32,941 nt of DNA from a virus (Duplodnaviria > Caudoviricetes): positions 1 through 32,941 of IMG/VR virus record IMGVR_UViG_3300036985_002114; one strand, given 5' to 3'. Made by a program: the position numbers and the translations under genes. Of this stretch, positions 1-32,941 are shown one piece after another (positions within the stretch are counted from its first letter, which is position 1; each line of letters starts with the position of its first letter). Under the pieces are notes generated by a model. It ran no database searches and was not told the DNA's origin. It saw only the letters and a list, made by a program, of their open reading frames with translations.

Positions 1-354
1 AAAAATTTATTGACGGACCCGGCGACAAATGGCGAATTGGACATCATGATGGCCGGCGGCGTTGGTCATGACGTCCGGATTGAAATGACGGTGACAAAAC
101 CGTTTTCCGCCATTCAGTCCAATGACATTTTGAATTTGGACCGCGTCAAAGCGAAGTTGCATCAATTAGGCGCGCGCCTGGTTGCCATCAACGACGACGT
201 CAACATGGAATTTTGGCAATTTGAAAACCGGATGTTCATTTTGCAAACCACCGGACGCGAATTCCAATTGTTTTGTTCAATGGAATTTCCAACCATGGAT
301 TCGGCCATTCGTCAAATCGAAAATATTTGTCGCACCCAAAAATTCATGGCATGA
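1..354 (+). CDS. 3' part of the hypothetical protein whose full copy is at 32392-32889
   Basis: Translation identical to the C-terminal part of 32392-32889; truncated by the window edge. Confidence 0.85.
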   Translation, partial: KNLLTDPATNGELDIMMAGGVGHDVRIEMTVTKPFSAIQSNDILNLDRVKAKLHQLGARLVAINDDVNMEFWQFENRMFILQTTGREFQLFCSMEFPTMDSAIRQIENICRTQKFMA

Positions 355-406
355 ACAACCAGGCAGAAAAAAACCGGGGCGACATGGCCCCGGTTCCAAA
401 CATTGT
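1..406. repeat. Left copy of a 406-bp terminal overlap (circular or permuted genome)
   Basis: Matches 32536-32941 except at 5 positions (78, 186, 201, 222, 279). Confidence 0.97.
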
Positions 407-683
407 TCACAACGAACAACAACAACAACGGGCCGAAAATACAACCGATTTGGTTTTGTTCGGCGCTTACTTTGATGTTTTAACGGAATTGGAATTGAAT
501 TTTTTGGTTTACCATTACAACCAATCATTGCCAATGGGTCGTTCAATATCCATTTTGGACATCAAACATTTTCCAATTAAGGAAATCACATCATTCATCA
601 AATCAATCAATGTCGGAATAATTGGCCAATCCGTTATTGATTGCATAACCGCAAAAATGGCCTACAAAAACTTTTTATCATGA
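351..683 (+). CDS. Hypothetical protein
   Basis: ATGA overlaps at both ends (351-354, 680-683); codon usage typical of this genome. Confidence 0.7.
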   Translation: MNNQAEKNRGDMAPVPNIVHNEQQQQRAENTTDLVLFGAYFDVLTELELNFLVYHYNQSLPMGRSISILDIKHFPIKEITSFIKSINVGIIGQSVIDCITAKMAYKNFLS

Positions 684-1183
684 ACACAATTCACGAAACC
701 AACACAAACAATTTTTTGTCGGAAATCAACGCCGAAGAAAATTTGAGCAAAACAAAGGTGGGAGAATTCGCCGCCAAATTAATCCAACTAAATACCGACG
801 GACACGTTGACACGTTGACCGCGTTGGCACGGTTGGAATTCCTTTCGCAAATCATTGACCAGGTCAAAAGCAACTACCGGACAACCGCCGTTGATGAATT
901 GGATTTGTACGGCCTGGAGGCCCGAACCGGTGTGGTTCGTTTTGGCGTGACGTTTAAACACAAAGAAACCGCCGTGAAATACGATTTCAGCCAAACGCCA
1001 ATGTGGTTGGGAATGGAGGCCGAAATTGAATCCATCAAAACCGCCCAAAAGGCATTGGAAACCCAATTGAAAGGATTGACCAAACCAATGTCCATTTTGG
1101 ATGAATCAACCGGTGAAATTAGTCAAATGAATCCGGCCATCAAAAGTTCAAAAACAACCGTGGAAATAACATTGCCAAAGTAA
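680..1183 (+). CDS. Phage protein of unknown function next to the recombinase gene
   Basis: ATG at 680 coupled to the previous stop; coiled-coil segment; KYDFS and LDESTGE motifs. Confidence 0.8.
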   Translation: MNTIHETNTNNFLSEINAEENLSKTKVGEFAAKLIQLNTDGHVDTLTALARLEFLSQIIDQVKSNYRTTAVDELDLYGLEARTGVVRFGVTFKHKETAVKYDFSQTPMWLGMEAEIESIKTAQKALETQLKGLTKPMSILDESTGEISQMNPAIKSSKTTVEITLPK

Positions 1184-1200
1184 CTTTTGCAATATATTTG
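1172..1200 (+). promoter_or_regulatory. Bacteroidota-type housekeeping promoter
   Basis: TTG at 1172-1174 and TATATTTG at 1193-1200 (TAnnTTTG -7 box), upstream of bet. Confidence 0.6.
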
Positions 1201-1226
1201 CGGAAATCAATAAACACAACAACATC

Positions 1227-2141
1227 ATGAATGCAGAAATCAACCGTTCAACCGGTCCACAATTTGTGGACGTTGACAAAATTAAGAAGTATTTGGAAAC
1301 CATGGGAATGGCCAACAATTTGACACGTTCCGAAGTTGAACAATTCGTTGAAATTGCCCAAGGGTTTGGACTTAATCCGTTCAAACGCGAAATCTACGCC
1401 AACAAATACGGCGACAAATTTTCGGTTATTGTCGGCTATGAAACGTATATCAAACGGGCGGAACGTTCGGGACTTTTGGCCGGATGGTCCGTTCAAACAA
1501 CCGGTTCCATCAATTACGAAAAACCCAAACAATCAACGTTGATGGCGACAATCACAATCCACCGAAAGGATTTTCAATTTCCATTTGTCCATGAAGTTTA
1601 TTTTTCGGAGTATTTCGGAACCAGGCGCGACGGAACATTGACCGATTTTTGGAAAAACAAGCCGGTGACGATGACAAAAAAAGTGGCCATTGCCCAAGGG
1701 TTCCGACTTTGTTTTTCGGATGAATTGGGGGGCATGCCATACACATCCGAAGAATTGGCGGACATTGAAAACACAACGCCAACAACAAAGCAACCGACGC
1801 CATCATTGCCCGTCATTAACATGGACGTATTGATTGCCCAAATTGAGGCCGCGAAATCGAAATCCGATTTGATTAGTATTTGGACCGCAAATGTGGAACA
1901 TCATGGAAATCCATTGTTCAAACATTCCATGACATCCCGAAAACAAATATTGGAGGCGCTCACAACGAGCGCCCCAATTTCGTCCACCGAATCATTGATT
2001 GACGAAATCATGTCCGCAGAATCCACCGACGAAGTTTTGGAATTGACCGTGGACCAAACGGACCCCGAAATCATGGACGCCGCCATGACCAGGTTGGAAC
2101 AAATCAACGGCGCCGTTCAACAAGATTTATTTGAAAAATGA
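1227..2141 (+). CDS. bet: Single-strand annealing recombinase, Bet/RecT family
   Basis: GLNPFKREIY, GYETYIKRAER and MTKKVAIAQGFRLCFSDELGGMPYTSEE match Red-beta family motifs. Confidence 0.88.
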   Translation: MNAEINRSTGPQFVDVDKIKKYLETMGMANNLTRSEVEQFVEIAQGFGLNPFKREIYANKYGDKFSVIVGYETYIKRAERSGLLAGWSVQTTGSINYEKPKQSTLMATITIHRKDFQFPFVHEVYFSEYFGTRRDGTLTDFWKNKPVTMTKKVAIAQGFRLCFSDELGGMPYTSEELADIENTTPTTKQPTPSLPVINMDVLIAQIEAAKSKSDLISIWTANVEHHGNPLFKHSMTSRKQILEALTTSAPISSTESLIDEIMSAESTDEVLELTVDQTDPEIMDAAMTRLEQINGAVQQDLFEK

Positions 2142-2227
2142 TGACATTCGCAATTGTAATGGTCATAATTGGATTAATTGGGACCATTGACGCCATTCGT
2201 CAACGATTTAAAAACAAAACAAAATGA
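2138..2227 (+). CDS. 29-aa single-pass membrane peptide (not in ORF track)
   Basis: MMTFAIVMVIIGLIGTIDAIRQRFKNKTK; ATGA overlaps with both neighbours and fills the gap exactly. Confidence 0.65.
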   Translation: MMTFAIVMVIIGLIGTIDAIRQRFKNKTK

Positions 2228-2634
2228 AAACAAAAAAAACAACAACCGGTTTGATTGACCCAATCGACATTCAAAACGGAATCAAACGAAAATTTGGAAC
2301 GATTAGAAATTTTTGCGAATCGTCCGGGGTGAAATACCATGTAATAACAAACGCCATGACCGGGCGTTTGCCGGGACAACGTTCACAAAGGGTTTTGGAG
2401 TTGGCCAAACAACAAATTGCCGAATTTGAATTGTTGCCATGTGTTTGGTGTATTGACCAGGACCAACGCGAATTTGTGAAAAAAGGTGTGAAAAACAAGT
2501 TTGGAACATTGCAAAACTTTTGCAAAAAACACCCGGAATTCACGTTGACTTTTGTCCACAACGTCATTGTCGGCAAACGCAAACGTGTTGATGACCGCGT
2601 GTTGGCATTAATTGACGCAATAAACACAAACTAA
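2224..2634 (+). CDS. Putative DNA-binding protein with two tandem HTH-like repeats
   Basis: Internal repeat IKRKFGTIRNFC...NAMTGR / VKNKFGTLQNFC...NVIVGKRKR; basic; lies just before the replication initiator. Confidence 0.6.
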   Translation: MKTKKTTTGLIDPIDIQNGIKRKFGTIRNFCESSGVKYHVITNAMTGRLPGQRSQRVLELAKQQIAEFELLPCVWCIDQDQREFVKKGVKNKFGTLQNFCKKHPEFTLTFVHNVIVGKRKRVDDRVLALIDAINTN

Positions 2635-2636
2635 TC

Positions 2637-3422
2637 ATGAAGAAATCAAACGGACGTGAACGCGCGCCATCGTTCCAATTTTACCCTGGGGATTGGTTGA
2701 CCGACCCCAAGTTGAATTTGTGTTCAACGGTCACAAAAGGCGTTTGGATTGATTTGATTTGTCACATGTTTTTGAGTGACGAACCCGGTGTTTTGATTTT
2801 TGGCGACATCATTTTGGACGCAAAAGGAATCCAAAAATTGTCCAAAATCAATCCAAAAGTGTTCCAAAAAACGTTCCATGAACTAACTACTTTTGGAATC
2901 ATTTCGAAGGACGAAAATGGGCGTTATTTTTCCAAACGAATGGTCAACGATGAACGCGCCCGTCAACAATGGCGCGACATTGGGAAATTGGGAGGGAATC
3001 CGAAATTGAATAAAAAGGTTAACCCAACCGTTAACCCAACCGTTAACCCCGAGGTTAACCCATTTCCAACCCCTTCATCTTCATCTTCATCTTCATCTTC
3101 AAATAAACACATTAACATGTGTTTGTGTAGTCACCCTTTGAACATCGAAATTCAAAAAAATTTTCCATCCGTCGCCAAAATGAAATCCCCGTTGACTGAT
3201 GACCAGGCGGAAAAACTTTTGGCGGAACATCCGGTGGCGGAAATCAACACAATTTTGGAGGCCATGGAAAACGTTCCGACATTGGCCACCAAATACAAAT
3301 CAACTTTTTTAACAATCAAAAATTGGATTAAACATCGAAAATCAAATGACAACAACAAAAATTCAAACAACAACACCCGAAATTCGAAACCCAATTTCGA
3401 CGATGCAATTTCGAAGTTTTAA
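2637..3422 (+). CDS. Phage replication initiator / replisome organiser (functional analogue of lambda O)
   Basis: N-terminal PSFQFYPGDWLTD motif; central low-complexity linker carrying DNA repeats; C-terminal helical domain ending TIKNWIK. Confidence 0.75.
   Translation: MKKSNGRERAPSFQFYPGDWLTDPKLNLCSTVTKGVWIDLICHMFLSDEPGVLIFGDIILDAKGIQKLSKINPKVFQKTFHELTTFGIISKDENGRYFSKRMVNDERARQQWRDIGKLGGNPKLNKKVNPTVNPTVNPEVNPFPTPSSSSSSSSSNKHINMCLCSHPLNIEIQKNFPSVAKMKSPLTDDQAEKLLAEHPVAEINTILEAMENVPTLATKYKSTFLTIKNWIKHRKSNDNNKNSNNNTRNSKPNFDDAISKF
3018..3101. repeat. Iteron-like repeats inside the initiator gene (putative origin)
   Basis: GTTAACCC four times at exact 12-bp spacing (3018, 3030, 3042, 3054), then about 5 copies of CTTCAT at 3073-3101. 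Confidence 0.75.
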
Positions 3423-4233
3423 CGGACGCGAGATTGTCGAAGCCTCAAGAGATACCCAAATTCGCAATTTAACGGACCATGAATCGATTAAAATGTCTTT
3501 AAGGTACATTTTCACGTTGGTTGGTCTTAAAAGCGAAAATTTGCCCTCTGAATTGCAAAAAATGGTTTTGATTGAATTCATCGAATCGGAATTCAATTGG
3601 ATGACCCCGGATGAAATGAAATTGGCCTTTCGAATGGCAGTCGCCGGGAAATTGGATGTCGAAATCAATCATTTTCAAAATTTTTCACCCGTTTATTTTT
3701 CAACCATAGTGAACGCATTCAAAGAAAAAAGAGGCGCCGCGTTAACCGAATACAATTCAAAAATGTTGGACATGACAACCAAACCAAACCCATCCGATGA
3801 CGACAAAAAAATGATGTTTTGGGGATTCGTGGATGAATGCGTTTTGAAACGTTGGGACCAATTCAACGCCGGAAAACCAATCAATTGGCAATCCGTCGCC
3901 GGAATCGAACATGTTTTTCGCACAATGGAACAATTGGGTTTCGTCCTGGAATCAAACGACAAAACAAAAATTGTTGAATTGGCCAAAAAACAAATTGCCA
4001 CCGAAATTGAAAACGAAAAACCCGAAACCCGTGAACGCGCCAAAGCCGTCCGGACATTGCGCGAAGCATTGGAGGCCGGGGAATTGGCATTCAAACAAAA
4101 CCAAAGTTTGGCAGACATGACCCGTCGTCGTTGCTACGAATTGACAATTGAACATTTTTTCCAAACATTCCGCAGTCAAAACACGGATTTTCGCGCCATC
4201 ATTGAACAAATTAAACAAACCCAATACGAATGA
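3346..4233 (+). CDS. Replication accessory protein (helicase-loader position); start may be 3403
   Basis: Overlaps the 3' end of the initiator as in O/P-type pairs; helical protein with no Walker A motif. Function inferred from position only. Confidence 0.55.
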   Translation: MTTTKIQTTTPEIRNPISTMQFRSFNGREIVEASRDTQIRNLTDHESIKMSLRYIFTLVGLKSENLPSELQKMVLIEFIESEFNWMTPDEMKLAFRMAVAGKLDVEINHFQNFSPVYFSTIVNAFKEKRGAALTEYNSKMLDMTTKPNPSDDDKKMMFWGFVDECVLKRWDQFNAGKPINWQSVAGIEHVFRTMEQLGFVLESNDKTKIVELAKKQIATEIENEKPETRERAKAVRTLREALEAGELAFKQNQSLADMTRRRCYELTIEHFFQTFRSQNTDFRAIIEQIKQTQYE

Positions 4234-4448
4234 CAAAACCCATCAACCCCGGAAACGCCATTTTGTTTTTGCTTAAACGCGAATACATCCGCGAATGTCA
4301 AATTGAATCCATGGCCAATGACCAGGGCGAAACAATCGAACGGGCCGTCCATCCAAATGGTTGGTCATTCGAACAATGGTTGACCGAAAACAAAATGATT
4401 GTTCAACCAAACATAATTCAAACCCCAAAAATCGAAATAATCAAATGA
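4230..4448 (+). CDS. Hypothetical protein
   Basis: ATGA-coupled on both sides. Confidence 0.7.
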   Translation: MTKPINPGNAILFLLKREYIRECQIESMANDQGETIERAVHPNGWSFEQWLTENKMIVQPNIIQTPKIEIIK

Positions 4449-4843
4449 ACAAAATTTTTCTAATTGGCCATGTTGGCCAGGAACCAAAGCGAACCACAAC
4501 CGGAACCGGAGTGAATTATTCGTTGGCAGTAAAAGAGCGAACAAAAACAAACGGCGAATGGACCGACAAAACCATGTGGACCGACATTGTCCATTGGGGA
4601 TTGAACGCGGATTTTGCCGAAAAATGGATTCACAAAGGAACCAAAATCATGATTGAAGGGCGTTTGAACATAACGGAAAAAACCGACAATGAAGGACGCA
4701 AAAAACAATTTGTCAATGTAGTGGCCGAGCATGTGGAATTGTTGTCAAAATCGGACGCCGCAGAATCAAAACAAGCCACAAACCAATCAACCAATCCAAT
4801 AAACGCCGCCGTCAACGAGGGCGCCGACGATTTGCCGTTTTAA
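4445..4843 (+). CDS. ssb: Single-stranded DNA-binding protein
   Basis: MNKIFLIGHVGQEP start, KGTKIMIEGRL, acidic tail DDLPF. Confidence 0.95.
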   Translation: MNKIFLIGHVGQEPKRTTTGTGVNYSLAVKERTKTNGEWTDKTMWTDIVHWGLNADFAEKWIHKGTKIMIEGRLNITEKTDNEGRKKQFVNVVAEHVELLSKSDAAESKQATNQSTNPINAAVNEGADDLPF

Positions 4844-4924
4844 AAACTAAATGTTGAAAACAATCCAAAAAACCCAACGTCCATTCCGGGACGTTGGTTC
4901 ATATTTGCTCAAAACAACAACACA

Positions 4925-5836: not shown

Positions 5837-5855
5837 TCAAACAAAAAACAACAAC

Positions 5856-6245: not shown

Positions 6246-6248
6246 TTT

Positions 6249-7685: not shown

Positions 7686-7963
7686 GCGAAAAAACACCAA
7701 TCAAACCATTCGCAATTCAATTGAGTGAACCGGAAATCCAAATGGTCATTCAAAACATCATTGACGATTTGGGCGACGTCCCATCCGCCGCCCGTTGGGT
7801 TCGTCACAAATTGCATTGGGTGAATTCCGAAATTTTGATAAACGGTTGGACGGTGGAAATGGTCCAAAGCCGTGACGAATGGGCCATAATTGACCGATAT
7901 TTCGAACGCCATTTGCAAACCATAATCCGGGCGCAAATGACACCAAACAAATTCAACCCATGA
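7682..7963 (+). CDS. Hypothetical protein
   Basis: ATGA-coupled on both sides, between terS and terL. Confidence 0.65.
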   Translation: MSEKTPIKPFAIQLSEPEIQMVIQNIIDDLGDVPSAARWVRHKLHWVNSEILINGWTVEMVQSRDEWAIIDRYFERHLQTIIRAQMTPNKFNP

Positions 7964-8217
7964 TTCGATTCGTTTCTCCATTCGTTTTTTCCAATGGATT
8001 TTTCCAAATCAACGACCCTATTGATTATGAATCCATAGGAATTGAACGCCCAACCGAATCCGGAATTCCGGTCCGATTCCGAATTGACGCCGTCATGGGT
8101 TGGAATGAAGATGAACCAGGAACAACGTATGTTCGATTAATGACCGGGCAAAATTTCCATTTGGACATTGCCATTGACGTCTTTGATGAATTCATGGTCG
8201 CCAATGGTTGTATTTGA
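7960..8217 (+). CDS. Hypothetical protein
   Basis: Coupled ORF overlapping the terL start. Confidence 0.65.
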   Translation: MIRFVSPFVFSNGFFQINDPIDYESIGIERPTESGIPVRFRIDAVMGWNEDEPGTTYVRLMTGQNFHLDIAIDVFDEFMVANGCI

Positions 8218-9472
8218 ACCACACCAAAAACAACATGAATTCATGGAGGCCGTTTTTTCGGGCCAATATGAATGTCTTTTGTACGGCGGCGCCGCCGGGG
8301 GTGGAAAATCCTATGTATCATTGGCCACATTGATATTGTTGGCAAAGATTTTTCCCGGTTCCAAATCACACGTCATCCGGGAATCATTGCCGTCGTTAAA
8401 GCGGACGACCATTCCAACGTTTTTTAAACTTTGCCCCAAACCATTTGTCCGTTCATACCATCAAACCGACCATATTGTGACGTTCACCAATGGTTCGACA
8501 TTGGAATTTTTTCCCGAAAATTATGTCATGGATAAAAATTTGACCCGGTTCGATGGATTGGAAACCAATTTTTTCTTATTGGAAGAGGCCCAAGAATTAC
8601 AAAAGAAAACTTTTGAAAAATGCAAATTGCGCGTTGGCCGCCATATCATTCCTAACCAACCGCCGCGTCTTATTTTGTCGACATGCAACCCGTCGCAGAC
8701 ATGGACCAAAACAACATTTCATGAACCGTCATTCAACGGAACTTTGCCGCCCGGATATTTTTACAAACGGGCGTTAATGGTTGACAATCCATCGTTGCCG
8801 CCCGAATATTTGGCCGCCATGGATACATTGGACGAATTGACGAGGGCCGTATTTGTGAACGGGGATTGGGACGTGTTTGACGTGGAACGCCCGTTTGCCT
8901 ACGCATTCAACAAATTCAAAACGGTGAAAACCAATGTGGCCATCCATCCAACCGAACCCATCATTTTGTCATTCGATTTCAACGTGGACCCAATCACATG
9001 TATTGCCGGCCAATCATTCAACGACAAAATCCGAATCATTCGGGAATTCCGATTAAAGAATTCGGACATATACCGGTTATGTGAAACAATCCGGATTGAA
9101 TTGGGCGACCGGTTGTTCATCGTTACCGGTGACGCGTCCGGCGCCAACCGTTCGGCCATGACCAGGGGCGCCGTCAATTATTTTACAATTATTCGCGATG
9201 AATTGGATTTGCCTAAATCCGCGTTCAAGGTCCCGACCGTCAACCCATCAATCAAAAATTCGCGCGTCCTTTTGAATTCCTTGTTGGAAAAACACAAAGA
9301 CATCCAAATCGACGCGTCATGTCAATGGTTGATTCATGATTTGCAGAACGTCGAAACCACCGCCAACGGGGACATTGAAAAAACAAAGGATTCCAATTTG
9401 TCCCACCTTTTGGATTGTTTCCGATATTATTTGTGGACGTTTCACAACGACTTTGTGAAATACCGGAATTGA
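8204..9472 (+). CDS. terL: Terminase large subunit
   Basis: Walker A YGGAAGGGKS, Walker B FFLLEEAQE, motif III TCNP, nuclease motifs SFDFNVDP and HLLDCFRY. Confidence 0.95.
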   Translation: MVVFEPHQKQHEFMEAVFSGQYECLLYGGAAGGGKSYVSLATLILLAKIFPGSKSHVIRESLPSLKRTTIPTFFKLCPKPFVRSYHQTDHIVTFTNGSTLEFFPENYVMDKNLTRFDGLETNFFLLEEAQELQKKTFEKCKLRVGRHIIPNQPPRLILSTCNPSQTWTKTTFHEPSFNGTLPPGYFYKRALMVDNPSLPPEYLAAMDTLDELTRAVFVNGDWDVFDVERPFAYAFNKFKTVKTNVAIHPTEPIILSFDFNVDPITCIAGQSFNDKIRIIREFRLKNSDIYRLCETIRIELGDRLFIVTGDASGANRSAMTRGAVNYFTIIRDELDLPKSAFKVPTVNPSIKNSRVLLNSLLEKHKDIQIDASCQWLIHDLQNVETTANGDIEKTKDSNLSHLLDCFRYYLWTFHNDFVKYRN

Positions 9473-10263: not shown

Positions 10264-13200
10264 ATGGCCACCGAAGTAAACAATATATTGTTCAAATTGC
10301 AAGCGGACACCGCCCAATTGCGAAGTGAATTCGCCAAATTGAACACGGGAATTCAAAGCATTCAAACCAACACCAAAGCGACCGAAACCGGTTTCAAAAG
10401 TTTGAAAAACACAATTGCCGGGGCCGCCGCCGCATTTGGTGGAATATCCGTCGCCACCGCGTCCGTTGATTTTGCCCGTGGCGCCATCAAAGCCGTGGCG
10501 GATTATGAAGCCGTCCAAATATCATTGGAAACGTTTTTGGGTTCGGCCACCGCCGCCAAAGAATTGTTTGGCGAATTGGAACAATTCAGCATAAAAACAC
10601 CGTTCACCCCGGAACAAGTTAATGACGCCGCCAAATCATTGTTGGCATTTGGTGAACCGGTTGAAGGTTTACAAACCACATTGGGACGCATTGGGGACGT
10701 CGCGTCCGCCACCGGCAAAGATTTCAATGAATTGTCCGTCATATATGGCAAAGCGCGCGTTCAAGGAACGTTGTTCGCCGAAGACATCAACCAATTGACC
10801 GAAGCCGGTGTTCCGGTCATTCAATTGTTTGCGGAACAATTAGGTGTTTCCGCCGGCGAAGTGAAAAAATTAGGTTCGGAGGGGAAAATTTCGTTTTCCA
10901 ATTTGGAAGCCGCGTTCACAACTTTGACGTCGGAGGGCGGACGGTTTTTTGGATTGACGGACAAATTGAGCCAATCAACCGCCGGACGATTGTCCACCCT
11001 GGAGGGTAATTTCACCGAATTGAAACGAAGCGTTGGGGAAGGTTTGTTGCCCGTGTTTGAATTTTTAACCGATGCGGCGTTCAAGTTGATTGCCGGATTG
11101 CAAGCCATTCCGACCATTGTCGAAGAAAACCGCCGCGCGTTTATTCTTTTAGCCGGTTCGATTGGTGTTTTGTTGACCGTTCAAAACGCCGCGTTGTTGT
11201 CCCAATTGCGTTATGAATTAGGATTCAAAAAACTTATTATTCAAGAAAATTTGTCCATTGCCATCAAAAAATTGCAAGCGTTTTGGACCGGTGCGACAAC
11301 CGTCGCCACCAATTTGTTGACCGGCGCGACAACCGCGTCATCCATTGCAACCAGGGCCGCCGCATTGGCCACAACCGCATTCAACGCCGCATTGAAAGCC
11401 AACCCGGTTGGATTAATCATTGGCGGATTGACCGCGTTGGTGTTGTTGTTTTCGGATTATTTGTTTGCGGCGGATGAAGCCGTTGAAGCCACCAACGAAT
11501 TAAGCGCCTCCCAAATTGCAGTCGCCGAAGTAAACGCAAAAGCCAACGAGCAAATCGCAAAGGAATCCGGGGAATTGACGTCGTTGTTTGCCGCGCTCAA
11601 AAAAACCAATGAAGGGAGCGCCGAAAGGAGCCGACTAATTAATGAAATTAATGGCAAATACGGAACAACTTTAAAAAACATCAAAGATGAAAAGGAATTC
11701 ATTGAACAATTGGATTTGGCCTACCAAAGTTTGATTCAACAAATCAAAACCAAAGCGCAAACCGAAGCCAAACAACAAGTGTTAACGGATTTGTATTCCA
11801 AACAAGCCAGGGCGCAACAATTGGCCGCAAATTCATATTTGGAACTATCGTCGGCCATTGCCGCCGGAAACAAAACGGCGAATGAAGTATATAAAACGTT
11901 GGTTCCGTCGCAGAAAAAAATTGTTGACGACTTAATTGCAAACAACGAGGCCGTTCGGAATCAATTGGGCGAGGCGCCATTGGCATTGTCACAAACAGCG
12001 TTGGACATTGCCGGGAATTTTGCCAACGCCGGGGCGTTAATTGACCCACTAATCGCAAACAATCCATTCGCCAAATTAAGCGAAGCGGAACAAAAATCAT
12101 TGGATGAATTAAACGCCAACCAGGAAAGCGCGTTGACCGGTTTTGATTTTTTCCTAAATCAATACGGTGAAACCCAGGAACAAATTGACGCCATAAACAA
12201 AGAATTTGTGATTGACCCGTTTGTCAACACAAAAACGAATTTGACAAAGAATCAACAAAAGGCGGCGGACGGTTTGGTCAAATCAATCAACGATTTGTCC
12301 AACACATTGGCCCGTGAAATTGCCAAACAACAATTCGAATTGAAATTCCAACCGCAATTGGCGGACGACCCGAAAACATTCGCGGAACGGATTCGTCGAA
12401 TTGAAATTGAAAGCCAAAAACAATTGGAGGCGTTCAACCTGGAGATTGATGAACGCGAGAAAGTAGCAAAGGCGGAGGGGACATTCGCCGCCAACGCCGC
12501 CAAATTTGCCCAAATAAGGGCCAACGGCGAATTGTTGATTCGCGCCGAAACCCAAAAGGCAATCACAAAGTTGACCATTGACGGCGAAAACGAACGAAAC
12601 GATTTCATCAACGAAACACAAACCGCCAACGCGGAATTGTCATTGGCCCGTCAACTTGAAGCCATCAAAGTATTGGAAAAAGAACGGTCAAAGTTGATTG
12701 ACCAATTGTCAAAAACCCGAAACGCGGACGAACGAAACGCCGTCCGGGTTCAATTGAATTCCAATTTGCAAGCAATCAAAGATTCGACAAAAAAAGCGGA
12801 AAAACTTGAATTGGACGCCATCGAAACAAAACGTGTGGCCGGTGTAAAGGGGGCCGGGGAATTCACCGAACAAGTTGACGCCATAAACGCCCAAAGCGCC
12901 GTTGACCGATACAATATTGAAAAAAAGTATGCGGACCAACGGATTGATTTGGAAAACGAGGTGACGGATGCAACGGTGGCCGCGTCGGATAAACGACAAA
13001 AGGAAATTCAAGACGCGTTGAACGAATTGGTGGACGCGACCGTGGCCGCCACCAAACAATTCATCGACGCCCAAATAACACAAACCGACGCGTTGATTGA
13101 CGCCCAACAAAAAAGGGTTGACGCCGCCCGTGACATTGCGGAAAACGGAAACGCCGAATTGTTACAATTGGAACAAAAACGTTTGGACGATTTGACCAAA

Positions 13201-19785: not shown

Positions 19786-21467
19786 TTACAATTGAAAACA
19801 TATCGACGGCGTTGTCCGGAGACAATTATCGTCCAAAAAATTGGGAACATTGGAACCGGGTTCGGAATACCATGTTCATCCACACCAGGGGAAAAAACCC
19901 CGGCGAAATATTGACGTCACGTCGTCCCAATGAAGACCCGGACGTTCAAAAATATCGTTTGTCCATTTACGAACCAATCACAAAAGGTTCCATGAATAGG
20001 GCCATCGACAAATTGTTTCGAATATTCCAAAACGCCAATTTTTCCATTTCGGTTTCGGACGAATTGGACACCTATTTAAGCGAACAAAAATTCGATGGCC
20101 AATATTTTTATTCGTACATCCAAAAATTCGTTGTCCGCCGCATGATTGAAGACCCGAACGGTTGGTTGGTGTGGATTCCCATTGGCGAAGGTTTGACCAA
20201 TCCGGCCATCAAAGTGGACGCCGAACCGGTGTTGTTGATGTCCGACCAAATAAAGGTTTTGGAGAAAGGATTATTGACGTGGCAATCAATGGATGAACAT
20301 TCATCCGTCATGGCAAACGGCAAATCACAAATGACCGGTTTGGTTTTTTATTCGTTGACAAATAACGAGTATTTGAAACACACCCAATTTGGCCAGGCCA
20401 TTGACAAAAAATTTGAAACGGTTGTTGTTTACCAACATGACATGGGAACCATTCCCGGAATCATTTTAGGGGGCGACTTAACCGACGACAATTTTTTCGA
20501 TTCTTATTTTTCATCGTTCGTTCCTTTTGCCAACGAGGCAATTCGCCAATATTCCGATTGGACCGCCGTCATGACGACGTCCGCGTTTCCGTACCGCGAG
20601 GAAATCGCAGAAACATGCAACGCAAAAGGTTGTCGCGATGGCGTTGTTTTCAACCATGACAACGAGGAACATGAAACATGTGGCAATTGCAAGGGAACCG
20701 GACGAATCATTTCACGTTCGCCGTTTGGCGTTTTTCTTCGCGAAAAATCCAATCCGGCGTTGGGTGTTGATGGCGACGTCAACGGGCCAATGATTCGTTT
20801 CATTTCACCGGACGTTTCCATCATTGAATATTCGGGCCAGGCATGGCAAACACTTTTGAAGAAAGCCGAAGAGGCCTTACATTTAAACGTCATTGACGAA
20901 AGCCAATCCGGGGTGGCCAAAATGATTGACCGCGAAGATTCATTCAGTCAGTTGACCAAAATATCCAACAACATATTTGACGAAATCATTTTCAAAAGTT
21001 TGTTGTTTATTGAAAAATACCGAAGCGTTGTCCAACCAATGGCGCCGGTCATTACAAAGCCAATTTCGTTTTCGATGAAAACCGAAGAGGATTTGATTGA
21101 TGAATTGAATAAACTATCGGACAAAAATGCGCCCATTGCGTTTTTGGTTGAATCCACAAAAGATTTGGCGCGGAAACGTTTTTCGGGAAACAAATCCATT
21201 TCGCGAATGGTCGAAGTATTGGTTTCATACGACCCAATATTTCATCTAAGCACAAAGGACAAACAAATGTTGTTGGCCGCCGGTTCTATTAAAAAAGACG
21301 ACATGATTCGTTCGTTGTTTGCCTACAAAACGTTGGTGGCCATAACCGCAGAAAACGGAACGGAATTTTTGGAAAAACCATTGGGTGAAATATTCGCCGA
21401 ATTGGACCGCAGAATCCAACCAACCATCGATTCATACGTCACAACCCAATTGATTCAAACCACATGA
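19782..21467 (+). CDS. Portal protein (putative) with an inserted zinc-finger-like motif
   Basis: 561 aa; precedes MuF, scaffold and capsid; ESQSGVAKMID resembles the portal SGxA motif; CNAKGCRDG...CGNCKGTG insert. Confidence 0.75.
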   Translation: MITIENISTALSGDNYRPKNWEHWNRVRNTMFIHTRGKNPGEILTSRRPNEDPDVQKYRLSIYEPITKGSMNRAIDKLFRIFQNANFSISVSDELDTYLSEQKFDGQYFYSYIQKFVVRRMIEDPNGWLVWIPIGEGLTNPAIKVDAEPVLLMSDQIKVLEKGLLTWQSMDEHSSVMANGKSQMTGLVFYSLTNNEYLKHTQFGQAIDKKFETVVVYQHDMGTIPGIILGGDLTDDNFFDSYFSSFVPFANEAIRQYSDWTAVMTTSAFPYREEIAETCNAKGCRDGVVFNHDNEEHETCGNCKGTGRIISRSPFGVFLREKSNPALGVDGDVNGPMIRFISPDVSIIEYSGQAWQTLLKKAEEALHLNVIDESQSGVAKMIDREDSFSQLTKISNNIFDEIIFKSLLFIEKYRSVVQPMAPVITKPISFSMKTEEDLIDELNKLSDKNAPIAFLVESTKDLARKRFSGNKSISRMVEVLVSYDPIFHLSTKDKQMLLAAGSIKKDDMIRSLFAYKTLVAITAENGTEFLEKPLGEIFAELDRRIQPTIDSYVTTQLIQTT

Positions 21468-23239
21468 TTGAATTTGATGACAACGTCATTGAAATCATTC
21501 GTAAACAAGACCGGACAATTTCGGCGGCCAATCAATCATTCTTTGATTCTTTGCCGGCCACCGAACAAAGGATTTTCGCCGCAGTATCAAAACACGTTCA
21601 AAAATTTTCATCCGACGGGGAAAATTTCGTGTTTGATGACGGGAACACATTATTGACCAACCAGGTTGAACGAATCATTTTGGACGCGTTGCAGTCGTCC
21701 AAATATCCATCGGACGTGAACGGGTTTTTGCGGAATTTTGAAAACATCAAACAATTCAATTTTGATGTTCACGGGAACGTCAACGATTTGACGCCGGAAC
21801 AATTGGGTGAATTGATTAATCCAATCCAACGGGCGACGGTTGAACAAACGTTGCAAGGTTTGACGGGTTCGGGCGTTTCCACCAATTTCATTGAACCATT
21901 GCGGACCGGAATATTTCAAAACGTTGTGGCCGGTGCGACCAAATCCGATTTGGAGGCGTATTTGCGCCGTTTCATTTTGGGGAATCCGGAGGTGGATGGA
22001 CTTTTGTCCCGTTACGTCAAACAAGTAAGCCGTGACGCATTGAACCAATTCGATGGCCAGGTCAACGCGAAGATTGCGAATGAATTTGGATTGGACGCAT
22101 ACCGTTATGTTGGTTCGTTGATTGAAGATTCGCGGCCCCAATGTCGTCGATGGGTGGCCATGCAAGTAATCCAAAAAAAGGATTTACCGTCGGAAATTGC
22201 CTGGATGAACGCCAATGGAACGGGAGCCATTCCGGGGACGTCGCCCGAAACGTTTTCCATTTACCGTGGCGGATACAATTGTCGCCATTCGGCCATTCCA
22301 TTCAAGTTGACCAAATCACAACGGGAACAATTGAATTTGGAACCTTTGCCGGCGGACATTGCACCGGCAAAGATTGAACAACAAATAAAAGAGGTTGAAA
22401 AGGAAATTGCCAAAACGGAACAACAAACCGCAAAGGCGACCAAACAAAAGGAAATCAAACCCGAATTGTTTTTATCTACGCAAAACAAATCAACGAATGA
22501 CCAATTCAATGAAATTGCCGCCAATGCAAATGGCATAATTGAAACAATTAATTCAAAAGGAACATTTGTGACATTACGAAAACCGTCGGAATGTACCGGA
22601 CCAGGAACCAATAAATTTGCCCAAGCAACCGGGAAAAAATTGACTTTGCCGACATATCAAATTGGAACGGTTTCCACCAATTCGGGCGGCAATTGCGCCA
22701 CAAACAATTCATATTTGAACATAAAAATTGGCAAAGGGGACAAAATTGAATTTAAGAAATACGACATTGAATCCACCGAAGATTGGATGAATCAACACGC
22801 GGAAAAACATGGATACAAAATCCGGACATCCGGTGAAAAAAAACTAATGACAAAGGATGTTTCACGCGGATATGTTATTGCCGGAGAATTGGAAAATGGC
22901 AAATTTAAGCCATGGACCATTTCAACGATTGCAAGGGATATCGACCAAAACATTGCACCAACTATCACACATGAAATGGCGCATGCAATACAAAACGCAA
23001 ATGACCCCGGTCGCGCGTCCATAATTGGGCCTTTGTTGCGTGAAAAGGGTTTGAAATTAGGTGACGCGCCAACCTTATATGGCCAAACAAACAACCAGGA
23101 GTTTTGGACCGAATCGTTTTCATCGTATGTATATGCCAACGATTGGTTGAAGATGTCACACCCGAAGGTTTTTGAATTTGTTGAAGATTATTTAAAAGCC
23201 ATGAAAATTGATATTAACACCGTAAAAATTGCCAAATGA
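21464..23239 (+). CDS. Minor head protein (MuF/SPP1 gp7-like) fused to a C-terminal zincin metallopeptidase domain
   Basis: DSRPQC...GGYNCRH (22268-22288) head-morphogenesis motif, a coiled linker, then HEMAH (22970-22984) and YGQTNNQEFWTESF. Confidence 0.8.
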   Translation: MIEFDDNVIEIIRKQDRTISAANQSFFDSLPATEQRIFAAVSKHVQKFSSDGENFVFDDGNTLLTNQVERIILDALQSSKYPSDVNGFLRNFENIKQFNFDVHGNVNDLTPEQLGELINPIQRATVEQTLQGLTGSGVSTNFIEPLRTGIFQNVVAGATKSDLEAYLRRFILGNPEVDGLLSRYVKQVSRDALNQFDGQVNAKIANEFGLDAYRYVGSLIEDSRPQCRRWVAMQVIQKKDLPSEIAWMNANGTGAIPGTSPETFSIYRGGYNCRHSAIPFKLTKSQREQLNLEPLPADIAPAKIEQQIKEVEKEIAKTEQQTAKATKQKEIKPELFLSTQNKSTNDQFNEIAANANGIIETINSKGTFVTLRKPSECTGPGTNKFAQATGKKLTLPTYQIGTVSTNSGGNCATNNSYLNIKIGKGDKIEFKKYDIESTEDWMNQHAEKHGYKIRTSGEKKLMTKDVSRGYVIAGELENGKFKPWTISTIARDIDQNIAPTITHEMAHAIQNANDPGRASIIGPLLREKGLKLGDAPTLYGQTNNQEFWTESFSSYVYANDWLKMSHPKVFEFVEDYLKAMKIDINTVKIAK

Positions 23240-24591: not shown

Positions 24592-24595
24592 AAAA

Positions 24596-24721
24596 GGGCC
24601 GTCGGGCCGTAAACGAACCACCGGGTTTTGGCCAACCGTAAAGGCCGACCGGGGAACCGACCCAAATTCGGAATGATTGCCATGATGGCGACCATTGCGC
24701 GTTTGGGTTTTTCCGTTTCCC
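24596..24721 (+). ncRNA. Candidate structured RNA leader of the major capsid gene
   Basis: GC-rich intergenic segment with nested stems: 24651-57/24715-21, 24659-66/24702-09, 24672-82/24686-96 and 24601-05/24645-49. Confidence 0.45.
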
Positions 24722-24763
24722 AAAAAAAAACACACAAAAATTTAATTTAAAAAAATTACAAAA

Positions 24764-25789
24764 ATGGCATTTACTCAAGGACTTTGTCAAAAATTACAAG
24801 CGGATTTGAATTCCGTGGCCGGCATAAACGCACCGGCATTGAAGCGCGACCGCGTCGGATATTTGGACGCGTTGATGAGTGACGAAAACCGAAGCGGATT
24901 CGAAGCAATTCCAATTCCATCAAACGGCAAAAATCGTTCGGTTCAAGTGAACTACATTCAGCGCGGAACCGCGTCGTCCGTTAACCTAACATGTACGGCG
25001 TCATGCGACACCGACCAAGAGATTTCACCGTTGGAAACAATTGTGACAATTACGGATTGCATTGAAACAAAAGGAATGTTATTCAGCGAAGACCAAATGA
25101 GGAAACTTTGCGAAGCAGATTCGGTTTATGTTTCAAACGTCATCATGGCGCAAATGAACGCCATCAACACGGCGTTGAACAACCAATTGTTGGCCGACCA
25201 GGCGACCAATTTCGGCAAATTTGCGGATGGCACAACCCAAAAGGACATCCAATTGTTTGACGCGACATCAAACGCGCCGCGCGGAATTGCGGCGGCCCAA
25301 ATCCGTCATGAATACGATTTGGTGGGAGCGTCCGGAGCGCCAATGATTATTGGCGGCGGAAACTTTGATTTGTACGCAAAGACCCAACAAATTGCGTGTT
25401 GCAATTCATCAACCGGAATTGATTTGAGCCGTTGGACCGACTATCGTTATTACAACGACCGTTTTGTTGACACCGTAATTGGCGCCAACGAATTCATTGT
25501 TTTGGCCCCTGGAGCCGTTCAACTTTTGACGTGGAACAAATACGTTGGTGACTACGCAAAGCGAAACGACGTGTTTGAACATGGAACCATAACCGACCCG
25601 TTTACCGGTTTGACATACGATTTGAAGGTTCATTATGACGATTGCGCGGACCAATGGTCAATCAAATTGCAATTGAATTGGGGATTGTTCTTCATTCCGG
25701 CCAACGCGTTTGGTGCAACCGACATCAACACCGGCGTGAATTACACATTCCATTTTGCAGATTGTTCAACAATAATCGGATGTGAATAA
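24764..25789 (+). CDS. Major capsid protein (putative)
   Basis: 341 aa; follows the scaffold; strong A-rich initiation region; size and position fit an HK97-fold capsid protein. Confidence 0.75.
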   Translation: MAFTQGLCQKLQADLNSVAGINAPALKRDRVGYLDALMSDENRSGFEAIPIPSNGKNRSVQVNYIQRGTASSVNLTCTASCDTDQEISPLETIVTITDCIETKGMLFSEDQMRKLCEADSVYVSNVIMAQMNAINTALNNQLLADQATNFGKFADGTTQKDIQLFDATSNAPRGIAAAQIRHEYDLVGASGAPMIIGGGNFDLYAKTQQIACCNSSTGIDLSRWTDYRYYNDRFVDTVIGANEFIVLAPGAVQLLTWNKYVGDYAKRNDVFEHGTITDPFTGLTYDLKVHYDDCADQWSIKLQLNWGLFFIPANAFGATDINTGVNYTFHFADCSTIIGCE

Positions 25790-27299: not shown

Positions 27300-27715
27300 T
27301 TTACCACCGCGACAAATTAGAAATGACGCCGGATTTGCTTGAATCCGCCGTGTTGACTTTACACAAAGCAATTTGGCCACATGACGTGTTCGTTGTGGCG
27401 ACCAATGAAAAGCATATTGAACGTATGGAAAGTATGGAATCCGTTGCAAAATGCAAATTTTCCAAACCGTCATGGATTAAAAATATTAATAAAAACGAGG
27501 CCGTTATTTTCACAATAACGTCCGGAATGTTTCGCAGAAAAAACGACCGCGCCATCATTGCCGCCCTGGATTACACAAAGGGCGAAAATGAAGGTTTGAC
27601 AATTGATGTGATTGATGGACCCAAATTTTCAATTTTTTATTTTGCCATCAAAAACAAAAAATCAAAGGAAAACGACGAACCCGAAACATTAGAAACAACC
27701 GATGAAAAAAAATGA
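27296..27715 (+). CDS. Hypothetical protein
   Basis: ATGA-coupled on both sides. Confidence 0.7.
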   Translation: MIYHRDKLEMTPDLLESAVLTLHKAIWPHDVFVVATNEKHIERMESMESVAKCKFSKPSWIKNINKNEAVIFTITSGMFRRKNDRAIIAALDYTKGENEGLTIDVIDGPKFSIFYFAIKNKKSKENDEPETLETTDEKK

Positions 27716-28221
27716 AACAAGAATTCAAATATTTGGTCATCCATTGCACCGCAACGAGGGAGGGCCAAAATATAACGACCGACGACATTATTCGTTGGCA
27801 TACCACACCGCCACCAAATGGTAGGGGTTGGAAACGCGTTGGATATTCCGATTTGATTATGTTGGATGGAACGCGAAAAACTTTTGTCAAACACAATGGC
27901 GACAAATGGATTGATGACGCGGAAATCACAAATGGAGTGAAAGGAATCAACGCCGTTTCGCGTCATGTCGTTTACGCCGGGGGATTGAATAAAGATGGAA
28001 GCCGGGTGAAAAACACATTGAACAATTCCCAATCCCAAACGTTGGCCGCCATAATTGATGAAGTTTTAAGATATCAACCGGACGTTTTGATTGCCGGTCA
28101 CAACCAATTTGACAACAAAGGTTGTCCATCATTTTGGGTTCCATCTTATTTGGAATCTTTGTGGATACCGGACAAAAATATTTACAAAAAAGACCCTTTC
28201 GGATATGGCTTCATGCTTTGA
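27712..28221 (+). CDS. Endolysin, N-acetylmuramoyl-L-alanine amidase (T7 lysozyme/Amidase_2-like)
   Basis: LVIHCTAT, GRGWKRVGY and GHNQFDNKGCPSF supply the His/His/Cys zinc ligands and catalytic Tyr. Confidence 0.92.
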   Translation: MKQEFKYLVIHCTATREGQNITTDDIIRWHTTPPPNGRGWKRVGYSDLIMLDGTRKTFVKHNGDKWIDDAEITNGVKGINAVSRHVVYAGGLNKDGSRVKNTLNNSQSQTLAAIIDEVLRYQPDVLIAGHNQFDNKGCPSFWVPSYLESLWIPDKNIYKKDPFGYGFML

Positions 28222-29146: not shown

Positions 29147-29158
29147 AAATGTAAAAAA

Positions 29159-29239
29159 ATGAAATGTAATTGTTCAAAACCTTCGCGCCCGTCGCGCCCG
29201 TCGCGTCCGGTGACGTCGCGTCCGCGTCCAAAATATTAG
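29159..29239 (+). CDS. 26-aa Pro/Arg-rich peptide (not in ORF track)
   Basis: MKCNCSKPSRPSRPSRPVTSRPRPKY; A-rich leader TAAAAAAATG; 9-bp repeats in frame. Confidence 0.55.
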   Translation: MKCNCSKPSRPSRPSRPVTSRPRPKY

Positions 29240-29286
29240 TGTAACAAAAGGACCATTGGCCGCGTATATGAACCACCACCCGGAAC

Positions 29287-30583: not shown

Positions 30584-30586
30584 GTT

Positions 30587-31153
30587 ATGGAACATTTGAT
30601 TTGTTTGATTGCCGAATCCATTCATTCGGTTATTCCCGTTTTGACCAAATCCGTTTTTTTGGCAAAGTTGGACGATGACGGGCGTGTTTTGGTTCGTGAC
30701 GTGAATTCAAACGAATATCATTTCGCCGGAATCCATGACCAGGATTCCGCATATTTTTATATTCGGTTCCGAAACAATGGGCGGATTGAATATCAAACGC
30801 CATCGACAAACAAAAAATTCACGGGAATTCAATCGTTTTTCCAAATCCGATACCAATTGCGCGTTGTGGCATGTCTTAGGGCGGCCAATCCATGGACGTT
30901 GGAGGAACAATTAAGGGCCGCCGTAATGAACGCAAATTTGCCGTCAACGGCGACGTTTGCCAATGTTTCAATTGTTCCGGTGGAATCCATCATTGACCCC
31001 GTGACGGTTGTCATTGAAGAGTCGCCGCAGAAAAAAGGCCGGGCGTTTGATAAAAATTTGACGTTTGTGGCGTTTGACTTTGATTTGATTGGCGACCGCG
31101 ACATGGCGTTGGAAAATTATTGTGCGAACCCATGCGATGGTCCGGCGTGTTGA
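30587..31153 (+). CDS. Structural protein, possibly tail terminator
   Basis: Follows the neck gene; Cys-rich C-terminus. Confidence 0.45.
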   Translation: MEHLICLIAESIHSVIPVLTKSVFLAKLDDDGRVLVRDVNSNEYHFAGIHDQDSAYFYIRFRNNGRIEYQTPSTNKKFTGIQSFFQIRYQLRVVACLRAANPWTLEEQLRAAVMNANLPSTATFANVSIVPVESIIDPVTVVIEESPQKKGRAFDKNLTFVAFDFDLIGDRDMALENYCANPCDGPAC

Positions 31154-31154
31154 T

Positions 31155-31162
31155 TATCTTTG
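31155..31162 (+). promoter_or_regulatory. TAnnTTTG -7 box
   Basis: TATCTTTG in a 27-bp intergenic gap. Confidence 0.45.
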
Positions 31163-31180
31163 AAATAAATTCGAAACGAT

Positions 31181-31489
31181 ATGAATTGCGGATGTTCCAA
31201 ACACATTGGTTGTTTTGCACCAAACCAAACGATTGATTTCGGCGTTGTCGCGCCGTGCGAAGATACCTACACTTTTGAAATTTGGGGGCCAACGGGAACG
31301 TTTGCAACCATTGAAGTGGAATTCGAATTGGGCGACAATTTGGTTTTGCCCATGACGTTCAACGAAAACGCCACAACCACAATCAAAATTCGGGTTCCGG
31401 ATTGCGCCGTTGTTCCTGGATGGCATTATTTCACAACATCGGATGGCGCGTGTTCATGGAGTGTTGACGGAATTTCACCGGTTTGTTGA
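31181..31489 (+). CDS. Small Cys-rich beta protein
   Basis: MNCGCSKHIGC...SPVC; 102 aa. Confidence 0.7.
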   Translation: MNCGCSKHIGCFAPNQTIDFGVVAPCEDTYTFEIWGPTGTFATIEVEFELGDNLVLPMTFNENATTTIKIRVPDCAVVPGWHYFTTSDGACSWSVDGISPVC

Positions 31490-31908
31490 TGGAAAAAATT
31501 CGCAAAATATTGAATGAGTTCACCGGTTATGGTTTGGGAATCATGACCGGTTTGGGGTTGGCCATTTTCACCGAACACGGGGAAATGTTTCAATCCGTTA
31601 TGTTGGCCGGATTGGTTGGCATTGTGGCCGGGGCGTTGACGATATACATTGACTTTATTATTCAACCAGGCCAAATATTTGGTTTTTATACAAAGTTTTT
31701 GGAACGCGTCGTCAAACATCCAAAAAACCCGTTTGCGTTTTTATATAAACCAATGGGCGGATGTCTTTATTGCATGAACACATGGGTGGCCTTTGGCGTG
31801 TATTGTTTGGTTTCGTACAACATCGGATTGACGATGTGGTTGATTGTGCCATGTGCGGCCATTTCCCATGTAACGGTTTCCATATTGGAACCAATTGTAA
31901 ACGGATAG
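31489..31908 (+). CDS. Multi-pass membrane protein with CxxCxxxW motif
   Basis: About four hydrophobic segments; KPMGGCLYCMNTW, reminiscent of DUF1360-type proteins. Confidence 0.65.
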   Translation: MEKIRKILNEFTGYGLGIMTGLGLAIFTEHGEMFQSVMLAGLVGIVAGALTIYIDFIIQPGQIFGFYTKFLERVVKHPKNPFAFLYKPMGGCLYCMNTWVAFGVYCLVSYNIGLTMWLIVPCAAISHVTVSILEPIVNG

Positions 31909-31950
31909 AATCGTGATTGATAGTTATTGATTAGTTATGTTTAATTGAAG

Positions 31951-31977
31951 AGGCCCGAAAACGTTCGGGCCTTTTTT
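31951..31977 (+). terminator. Rho-independent terminator ending the late operon
   Basis: AGGCCCGAA-AACG-TTCGGGCCT followed by a T run. Confidence 0.9.
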
Positions 31978-32020
31978 ATGCCCAACATGCCCGTGTTAAA
32001 AACTTTTTTTTTAAAAATAG

Positions 32021-32050
32021 TTGCGGAAACAAAAAAGACGTGTATATTTG
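32021..32050 (+). promoter_or_regulatory. Early promoter, Bacteroidota consensus
   Basis: TTG at 32021-32023, 19-bp spacer, TATATTTG at 32043-32050; AT-rich upstream region; follows the terminator. Confidence 0.75.
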
Positions 32051-32090
32051 TCAAACAATTACAAACAACAACAATTTAAAACACAAAGCA

Positions 32091-32321
32091 ATGAGCGCAT
32101 TTTTTTCAAACACTAAGACAATCAACGTTTATGATGGTTCTTATCAAGTTAGTAGCGAAACGACAATCGAAGCCGTAAGCCACGGACAAATTTTTGAACT
32201 TTTAGAGCGTAATGAAAAATATCGCCCGTCTAATTATTGGGCGGAAGTTATTTTTAACAATACACATACGCGATTCACATTGAATAACGGCGAATTATCA
32301 GTAAGATATTTTACCCTTTAA
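32091..32321 (+). CDS. First early gene, 76-aa hypothetical protein
   Basis: ATG after an A/C-rich leader downstream of the early promoter; atypical dinucleotide composition. Confidence 0.7.
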   Translation: MSAFFSNTKTINVYDGSYQVSSETTIEAVSHGQIFELLERNEKYRPSNYWAEVIFNNTHTRFTLNNGELSVRYFTL

Positions 32322-32391
32322 AAAAACCAACGAGGGGCGCGGCTCAACAACGCGCACAAACAACAAAATCAACATCAAAAATCAAAATCAA

Positions 32392-32889
32392 ATGTACACA
32401 ATCACAATTTCAAACATGTTCAATTCGGATTCACGTTCATTCGAATTCAACGACGCCAAAACGGCCATGTCGCGTTTCCGCGAACACATGGACGCCAACA
32501 ACATCAATGATTGTCATTTTTACGATGACGCATACAAAAATTTATTGACGGACCCGGCGACAAATGGCGAATTGGACATCATGATGGCCGGCGGCGTTGG
32601 TCATGACGTCCGTATTGAAATGACGGTGACAAAACCGTTTTCCGCCATTCAGTCCAATGACATTTTGAATTTGGACCGCGTCAAAGCGAAGTTGCATCAA
32701 TTAGGCGCGCGCCTGGTTGCAATCAACGACGACGTGAACATGGAATTTTGGCAATTCGAAAACCGGATGTTCATTTTGCAAACCACCGGACGCGAATTCC
32801 AATTGTTTTGTTCGATGGAATTTCCAACCATGGATTCGGCCATTCGTCAAATCGAAAATATTTGTCGCACCCAAAAATTCATGGCATGA
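32392..32889 (+). CDS. Early hypothetical protein (165 aa)
   Basis: All five differences between its two partial copies are synonymous in this frame. Confidence 0.88.
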   Translation: MYTITISNMFNSDSRSFEFNDAKTAMSRFREHMDANNINDCHFYDDAYKNLLTDPATNGELDIMMAGGVGHDVRIEMTVTKPFSAIQSNDILNLDRVKAKLHQLGARLVAINDDVNMEFWQFENRMFILQTTGREFQLFCSMEFPTMDSAIRQIENICRTQKFMA

Positions 32890-32941
32890 ACAACCAGGCA
32901 GAAAAAAACCGGGGCGACATGGCCCCGGTTCCAAACATTGT
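32536..32941. repeat. Right copy of the 406-bp terminal overlap
   Basis: Direct repeat of 1-406. Confidence 0.97.

Follow-up and report, generated by a model that had tools for sequence, protein, structure and literature searches.

The virus record IMGVR_UViG_3300036985_002114 of IMG/VR (Duplodnaviria; Caudoviricetes), analysed over the whole stretch of 32,941 nucleotides (nt) that is called the window below, is the genome of a phage that has lost approximately three quarters of its AG/CT and approximately two thirds of its TA dinucleotides. The loss is probably the selected, summed footprint of evading a very large, adenine-methylating restriction repertoire in the host population, and not the mark of one enzyme. 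A small lytic phage without its own methyltransferase would meet a host population carrying many Type I, Type III, Type IIG-like, and Type IIP specificities. Purifying selection would remove the corresponding sites, and a core common to many sites would vanish where a synonymous change removes it cheaply; the excesses of AA/TT and CG would be by-products. The missing words fall into three layers, consisting of bipartite A..T motifs, words lost from one strand, and contiguous words lost from both strands.

Loss of AG/CT and TA along the genome

AG occurs 666 times in the window (odds ratio 0.29) and CT 272 times (0.15), giving a strand-symmetric AG/CT value of 0.23. All 33 one-kilobase (kb) bins are depleted, with AG at or below 0.51 and CT at or below 0.29, and the reversed pair GA/TC is ordinary (0.96). 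An earlier note on this DNA had claimed a genome-wide depletion from hand counts (5 AG+CT in 1–360, 0 in 7741–7860, 2 in 10441–10560, and 7 GA+TC in 1–60); the counts are exact and the claim stands. The odds are low at the three codon positions (AG 0.30/0.28/0.33 and CT 0.22/0.14/0.12; 43 genes, one read out of frame) and in intergenic DNA (1,330 nt; AG 0.24, CT 0.20), and per gene the AG+CT odds lie between 0.08 and 0.43 in 42 of the 43 genes. Codon choice is as the note described it, with TTG used for 588 of 787 Leu, CAA for 390 of 427 Gln, GAA for 601 of 669 Glu, and GCT for 8 of 716 Ala codons.

The gap also spans codon junctions, as had been claimed: A|G is found 298 times versus 715 ± 15 and C|T 79 times versus 625 ± 16 in 200 synonymous, amino acid-preserving shuffles. 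Odds near 1 after control for amino acids, which the note had named as a refutation, do not appear, both the junctions and the avoidable AG staying far below expectation, and its reading of a double-stranded DNA constraint under selection is supported over tRNA supply. RNA-level nucleases, tRNA supply, and primase sites were considered as causes and dropped on composition, codon-junction, and gene-content evidence; ultraviolet photoproducts were rejected as TT, TC, and CC are not low.

The earlier picture was incomplete: absent from it were the bipartite (Type I) arrangement, the removal of words from one strand, and the concurrent loss of TA, whose odds are 0.33, with 233 copies at codon junctions versus 660 in synonymous shuffles. 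Simultaneously, AA/TT (1.55) and CG are in excess. GATC is absent from the window (0 versus 178 expected), as are CTAG, CCGCGG, and CCCGGG; low on both strands are also AGCT and, among words without AG, CCCGC alongside the absent GATC and CCGCGG.

Three layers of missing words

The first layer is a bipartite signal. At distances of 7, 8, 9, 10, and 11 nt from the A of AG, T is found at 0.85, 0.68, 0.49, 0.68, and 0.88 of expectation, and after TA at 0.80, 0.64, 0.67, 0.84, and 0.99; after the five other A contexts the values at the same distances are 0.87–1.09. Conversely, the AG odds fall from 0.40 with no T at +7 to +11 to 0.21, 0.15, and 0.13 with one, two, and three T, and at the control positions +13 to +17 they are flat (0.22–0.24). 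Avoidable AG was counted at constant amino acid sequence, leaving out the AG that the code dictates (Lys/Glu/Gln before G), a partner T being a T 7–10 nt downstream of the A. With a partner T, 91 of an expected 868 avoidable AG remain on the coding strand and 97 of 960 on the template strand (approximately 0.10 of expectation on each); without it, 169 of 524 and 95 of 449 remain (0.21–0.32). The corresponding values in a normal sister clade are 0.98–1.13.

Motifs with halves of three and four bases are absent far beyond chance at distances 8, 9, and 10 (177 versus 26, 212 versus 28, and 173 versus 28), without excess at 13 and 14 (24 and 13 versus 28). Absent motifs at distance 8 whose halves contain no AG or TA are also over-represented (51 versus 9). 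With the order turned round to T..A, no deficit appears (observed/expected 1.05–1.09), and a downstream G, sought as the partner expected of N4-methylcytosine, gives no signal separate from T. The depletion is patchy, as would be predicted for a large set of motifs: 97 of 268 xAG–partner pairs lie below 0.3 and 67 at or above 0.75 (range 0 to 2.5), with 4 of 271 controls below 0.3, all on small, pooled counts.

The window thus displays the sequence features of Type I sites, namely A and T 7–10 nt apart, A-first orientation, and equal effects on both strands, and by this geometry the first layer is putatively ascribed to Type I sites read by HsdS. Type IIB enzymes have one fixed spacer length each; a single enzyme of this type was rejected, the deficit being spread across distances 7–11; several of them together might span it. 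In a hand tally of 2 of the 10 parts of the S4 Table of Blow 2016 (PMC4752239), 50 of 51 bipartite motifs are spaced 7–10, and AG/TA stands at the target A in 10 of 16 Bacteroidota motifs and in 7 of 8 Gillisia motifs. The Type I sites of the first layer would probably stem from a small number of recognition domains that read AG or TA and are joined to many partner domains at various spacer lengths.

The second layer concerns AG without a partner T. With amino acids controlled, GCAG is kept on the coding strand and purged from the template strand (27 of 41 expected versus 0 of 23), as are GGAG (23 of 45 versus 0 of 19) and GAAG (10 of 15 versus 2 of 26). The direction of the purge is identical in all six close relatives, and it is not seen in the control clade (G001, G003, G004). 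An asymmetric word lost on one strand is the pattern left by Type III, ISP, and MANTIS systems, and enzymes of this kind, which require inverted site pairs, may account for the layer.

The third layer is formed by contiguous words lost from both strands. These include GNNNAG (0.17 with G at −4), ATAG, ACAG, and CTAG, while GGCGAG, GCCGAG, GTCAAG, GAACAG, and CAATAG are near zero on both strands. AAAG is tolerated (27 of 47 expected on the coding and 36 of 49 on the template strand), and ACAAAG, CAAAAG, ATTCAG, and TTCGAG are retained on both strands; across 173 six-base contexts, AG is at least 0.75 in 17 and below 0.15 in 72. Asymmetric words of five to six bases with A next to last and lost from both strands are typical of N6-methyladenine (m6A) targets of the Type IIG or bacteriophage exclusion (BREX)-like kind, and Ag is present in 14 of 30 published m6A IIG motifs (hand tally of the same parts of Blow 2016, PMC4752239). 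Meanwhile, absent palindromes that switch between lineages, as GATC, CCGG, GGCC, and CATG do among close lineages, mark Type IIP avoidance; the window lacks GATC, CTAG, and CCGCGG, and other lineages lack CCGG, GGCC, and CATG. The layer would accordingly combine Type IIG/BREX-like and Type IIP sites. Since AG is kept near expectation in some contexts on both strands and is lost in dependence on a T 7–10 nt away, bare AG is not the target. Of the defence proposed in the earlier note, the version with many AG-containing restriction motifs is supported, and the one with a bare, very short AG motif is not.

Selection, relatives, and competing explanations

Relatives were gathered by their terminase and capsid proteins, and 30 near-complete records together with the window give 31 genomes. 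The comparison with related phages that the earlier note proposed yields a mixed picture: AG is at or below 0.30 in 15 of the 31 genomes (lowest 0.11), others have lost GAG, CG, or CA, and five are ordinary. One group (G022–G026, G018, G021) loses chiefly GAG/CTC (0.01–0.08), with AAG in excess and CCC often low as well (0.05–0.18). G016, G017, and G020 are poor in CAG (0.01–0.02) and GAC (0.04–0.12). The separate lineages G005 and G029 have CG at 0.03–0.05 and CA/TG at 1.5–1.6, with no A..T-type partner signal behind CG. In G031, CA/TG is 0.17, GC is 0.44, and AG and TA are ordinary; a glucosyltransferase-like gene (PHROG 842; L186:1708-2613) is present in it as well. The clade of normal composition (G001–G004; capsid identity 68–70%) has genomes of approximately 40 kb that still lack CTAG and carry 10–12 kb of mostly uncharacterised opposite-strand genes, which are candidate anti-restriction genes; in a subset of 88 accessory proteins from six relatives, no recognised anti-restriction gene or integrase was found.

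In a quick capsid tree, the AG-poor genomes are scattered over several branches, and two are the sisters of normal ones; recombination may contribute to this. Across the 31 genomes, which are related and not independent, the loss of a dinucleotide goes hand in hand with the shortage of T downstream of that dinucleotide (Spearman 0.89 for AG, 0.83 for TA, and 0.80 for CA). The cultured Croceibacter phage P2559Y (KC688701.1) shows a mild form, with AG at 0.77 and T at distances 7–10 at 0.77 after AG and 0.83 after CA; the signature is not seen in the cultured phage Peternella_1.

Synonymous changes on terminal branches were counted in seven relatives (52–71% identical at four-fold sites). Neutral transitions occur at 0.111 per opportunity, AG-creating transitions at 0.016 with and 0.034 without a partner T, and transitions creating only a partner T at 0.063. 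Because synonymous changes that create AG, or only a distant T, are suppressed, purifying selection and not mutation is responsible. AG losses are accelerated, strike both bases, and follow six routes, and the single mutational route with unaffected site creation that is the hallmark of methylation–deamination does not appear in these counts. A mutational or host-copied bias, such as the C-to-T change at methylated CT suggested for invertebrate DNA viruses, is very improbable, its mutational form being largely refuted already. It would draw on the excess of AA/TT, on AG>AA as the commonest loss (28 of 54), and on the CpT/ApG depletion of insect viruses, partly ascribed to host methylation in PMC4219779. 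Nevertheless, both bases are altered, with GCT, ACT, CCT, C|T, A|G, GAG, and CTN all dropping; AG creation is suppressed 3–7-fold, and changes 7–10 nt away are filtered as well; the clade sharing 68–70% capsid identity is normal; and the purge is weaker in rare, probably new genes, among them a 76-amino acid (aa) singleton of the window and several methyltransferase genes of sporadic occurrence.

A toy model on random peptides, whose motif numbers are model-dependent, bears on the remaining explanations. Under the genetic code, the ratio of minimum to uniform count is 0 for CG, 0.09 for AG/CT, 0.16 for TA, 0.28 for CA/TG, and 0.35–0.48 for the others, making AG/CT and TA the most removable steps that contain A. 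Removability alone was rejected as the reason why AG and TA are picked, the model showing it to be insufficient; it may determine which strand and which words go first. A bipartite pool skewed to AG/TA, combined with contiguous words ending in AG, yields AG 0.28–0.32, TA 0.35–0.43, and CG 1.5, near the window.

Several points weigh against a large restriction repertoire as the cause. The fit required a 95% AG/TA-skewed pool of 500–2,000 motifs plus 100–150 five-base words, and with an unbiased pool, in which up to 1,500 motifs of Type I-like form were used, AG is 0.83–0.97 and no AG/TA-specific loss arises. AG/TA stands at the target A in only 25 of the 51 bipartite motifs tallied from Blow 2016 (PMC4752239). 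The skew and the motif number are therefore unexplained; a hypothetical host-specific skew, for example through fixed AG/TA domains whose partners are shuffled, or enzymes of looser specificity would be required. Control geometries are also over-rich in absent motifs (A..A 73–83 versus 30 at distances 9–11, C..G 108 versus 38 at 9), TAG loss is independent of a partner T, and pooled-clade counts are not independent, given the identity at four-fold sites stated above. Furthermore, the putative enzyme types were assigned from geometry only, and the survey of Rusinov et al. 2018 (PMC6286503), as far as its statements on these types go, found that sites of Type I and of Type IIG were not avoided and those of Type III little; the statement for Type I/IIG recurs in passages of 2025–26 papers (PMC12455610; bioRxiv 10.64898/2026.09.23.753747). 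Per-motif surveys would miss such avoidance, because it is distributed among many motifs and becomes part of the dinucleotide background used for normalising.

One or a few loose host Type I-like enzymes, with a two-base AG/TA half, a degenerate partner, and a variable spacer, could produce the bipartite layer, which would agree with the lowering of nearly every partner class after AG at distance 9 (0.12–0.84), with 2+2 motifs such as AG-N6-GT already at 9 versus 51, and with the weak skew of ordinary published pools. We consider this unlikely, as four spacings are hit, the pairs are patchy, motifs without AG/TA are missing too, the other two layers require further enzymes anyway, and the toy model with two-base halves still required 300–500 motifs. 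More improbable still is a host factor reading bare AG/CT on double-stranded DNA, with restriction avoidance as a smaller second layer. It could explain why avoidable AG is so low even without a partner T, and sister lineages do come close to purging words of two to three bases (GAG 0.01–0.03, CAG 0.01–0.02, CG 0.03–0.05, CA 0.17); a flat AG penalty alone brings the toy model to AG 0.35 and CG 1.56, but yields neither the T deficit nor the TA loss, and the uneven six-base contexts, four of them kept on both strands, speak against it. The least credible proposal is a phage-encoded nuclease or modifier that attacks these words in host DNA, the phage avoiding self-damage. About half of the small window genes have no family match and could hide one; however, the lost words change between close lineages, and none of the gene families in the 31 genomes sets the AG-poor ones apart, nor is a methyltransferase or tRNA shared by them, methyltransferases being scattered (PF01555 in 6 of 32 records, C5-type in 4 of 31).

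Evasion of a large restriction repertoire thus remains the preferred explanation. A tentative extension of it, doubtful as it is, would be a host lineage with a new kind of bipartite restriction, in which one half reads only AG or TA and partners and spacers are shuffled to give hundreds to thousands of targets; phages would respond by deleting whole dinucleotides, or GAG, CA, and CG in the sister lineages. If so, each phage genome would be a readable negative of the pan-methylome of its host.

Genome, host, and comparison with known systems

The features of the window are collected in Table 1. The capsid gene is so named because it follows the portal, minor head, and scaffold-like genes; a tape measure protein is also encoded. 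Family searches of the window genes found no recognisable integrase, methyltransferase, modification gene, annotated anti-restriction gene, or tRNA, in agreement with the earlier note as regards methyltransferase and modification genes. The minor-head-like protein (21464–23239) has a C-terminal metallopeptidase-like stretch (THEMAH) with a weak Pfam ATLF match below the cut-off. Two GC-rich intergenic stretches (29147–29286 and 24592–24763, the latter directly 5' of the capsid gene) contain short tandem and inverted repeats and have little or no AG/CT. The motif TATATTTG at 32043 precedes the 76-aa singleton gene. TAnnTTTG is a promoter motif of Bacteroidota; it shows no overall enrichment in the window (30 versus 24.7), and 6 of the 30 copies fall in intergenic DNA (4% of the genome).

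Table 1. Features of the window
Feature	Position	Strand	Remarks
Complete circularly permuted siphovirus-like phage genome	1..32535		approximately 43 genes, all on +; AG/CT and TA depletion throughout
Recombination/replication block	1227..4843	+	RecT-like, replisome organiser, single-stranded DNA-binding protein (SSB)
Terminase large subunit	8204..9472	+	PHROG 979/2; query for gathering relatives
Likely major capsid protein	24764..25789	+	named by position; no family match; used for the tree
Amidase endolysin	27712..28221	+	closest cultured matches come from Bacteroidota phages
76-aa gene	32091..32321	+	in 0 of 30 relatives; AG+CT 0.65, TA 0.87; likely a recent arrival
Assembly overlap closing the circle	32536..32941		406-nt repeat of bases 1–406, 5 mismatches

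The host is likely a member of the Bacteroidota, as suggested by the endolysin, for which 35 of 42 records (E ≤ 1e-18) belong to phages of Bacteroides, Porphyromonas, Croceibacter, or Winogradskyella. A search of GTDB genomes gave no host and a single match, a distant (41%), whole phage-like contig of this family with normal composition in a Rickettsiales-labelled bin (L093/G032), which is probably mis-binned. Metagenomes yielded 65 loci on contigs of up to 46.6 kb, none with a host junction, and cultured phages gave no capsid match and terminase matches of only 23–28%. Related DNA occurs in sequencing runs whose labels read sediment, freshwater sediment, aquatic, or lake water, two RNA runs with a small share of it being left out of account.

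In the literature searched, which did not cover subscription journals, no report was found of phage AG/TA loss through Type I sites, or of avoidance at such a scale. The finding contradicts the general statement in print that sites of Type I and of Type IIG are not avoided by phages. Moreover, the deficit of T 7–10 nt after A is a simple statistic, usable on any phage to gauge Type I pressure, and the list of missing words predicts the methylome of an uncultured host, making host assignment and the size of a natural restriction repertoire testable.

Like the double-stranded DNA phages treated in the survey of Rusinov et al. 2018 (PMC6286503), the non-temperate window phage lacks the recognition words GATC, CTAG, CCGCGG, and CCCGGG; unlike in those phages, as described there, the bipartite and AG-ending layers dominate and shift dinucleotide and codon usage. 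Selection against bipartite Type I targets is likewise seen where single Type I sites are lost from staphylococcal plasmids and phages (Roberts et al. 2013, PMC3753647) and, in Murciaviruses, from the early region (PMC12455610). The accounts of these cases name between one and three motifs or a single region, whereas in the window entire half-site classes at four spacings are affected throughout the genome. Loss of sites from one strand is described for Type III systems (T7/EcoP15I) and for MANTIS (bioRxiv 10.64898/2026.09.23.753747), and the asymmetric words of the window similarly survive on one strand and vanish from the other; in contrast to these systems as there described, the four-base cores GCAG, GGAG, and GAAG are affected, suggesting several enzymes. 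Large invertebrate DNA viruses share the low CpT(ApG) and the high CpG (PMC4219779), but they have eukaryotic hosts and a methylation–mutation explanation, and the abstract of that study mentions no bipartite dependence. Taken at the level of its sequence, the window phage appears to work like known restriction-site avoidance, with the patterns of Type I, one-strand Type III-like, and IIG-like targets.

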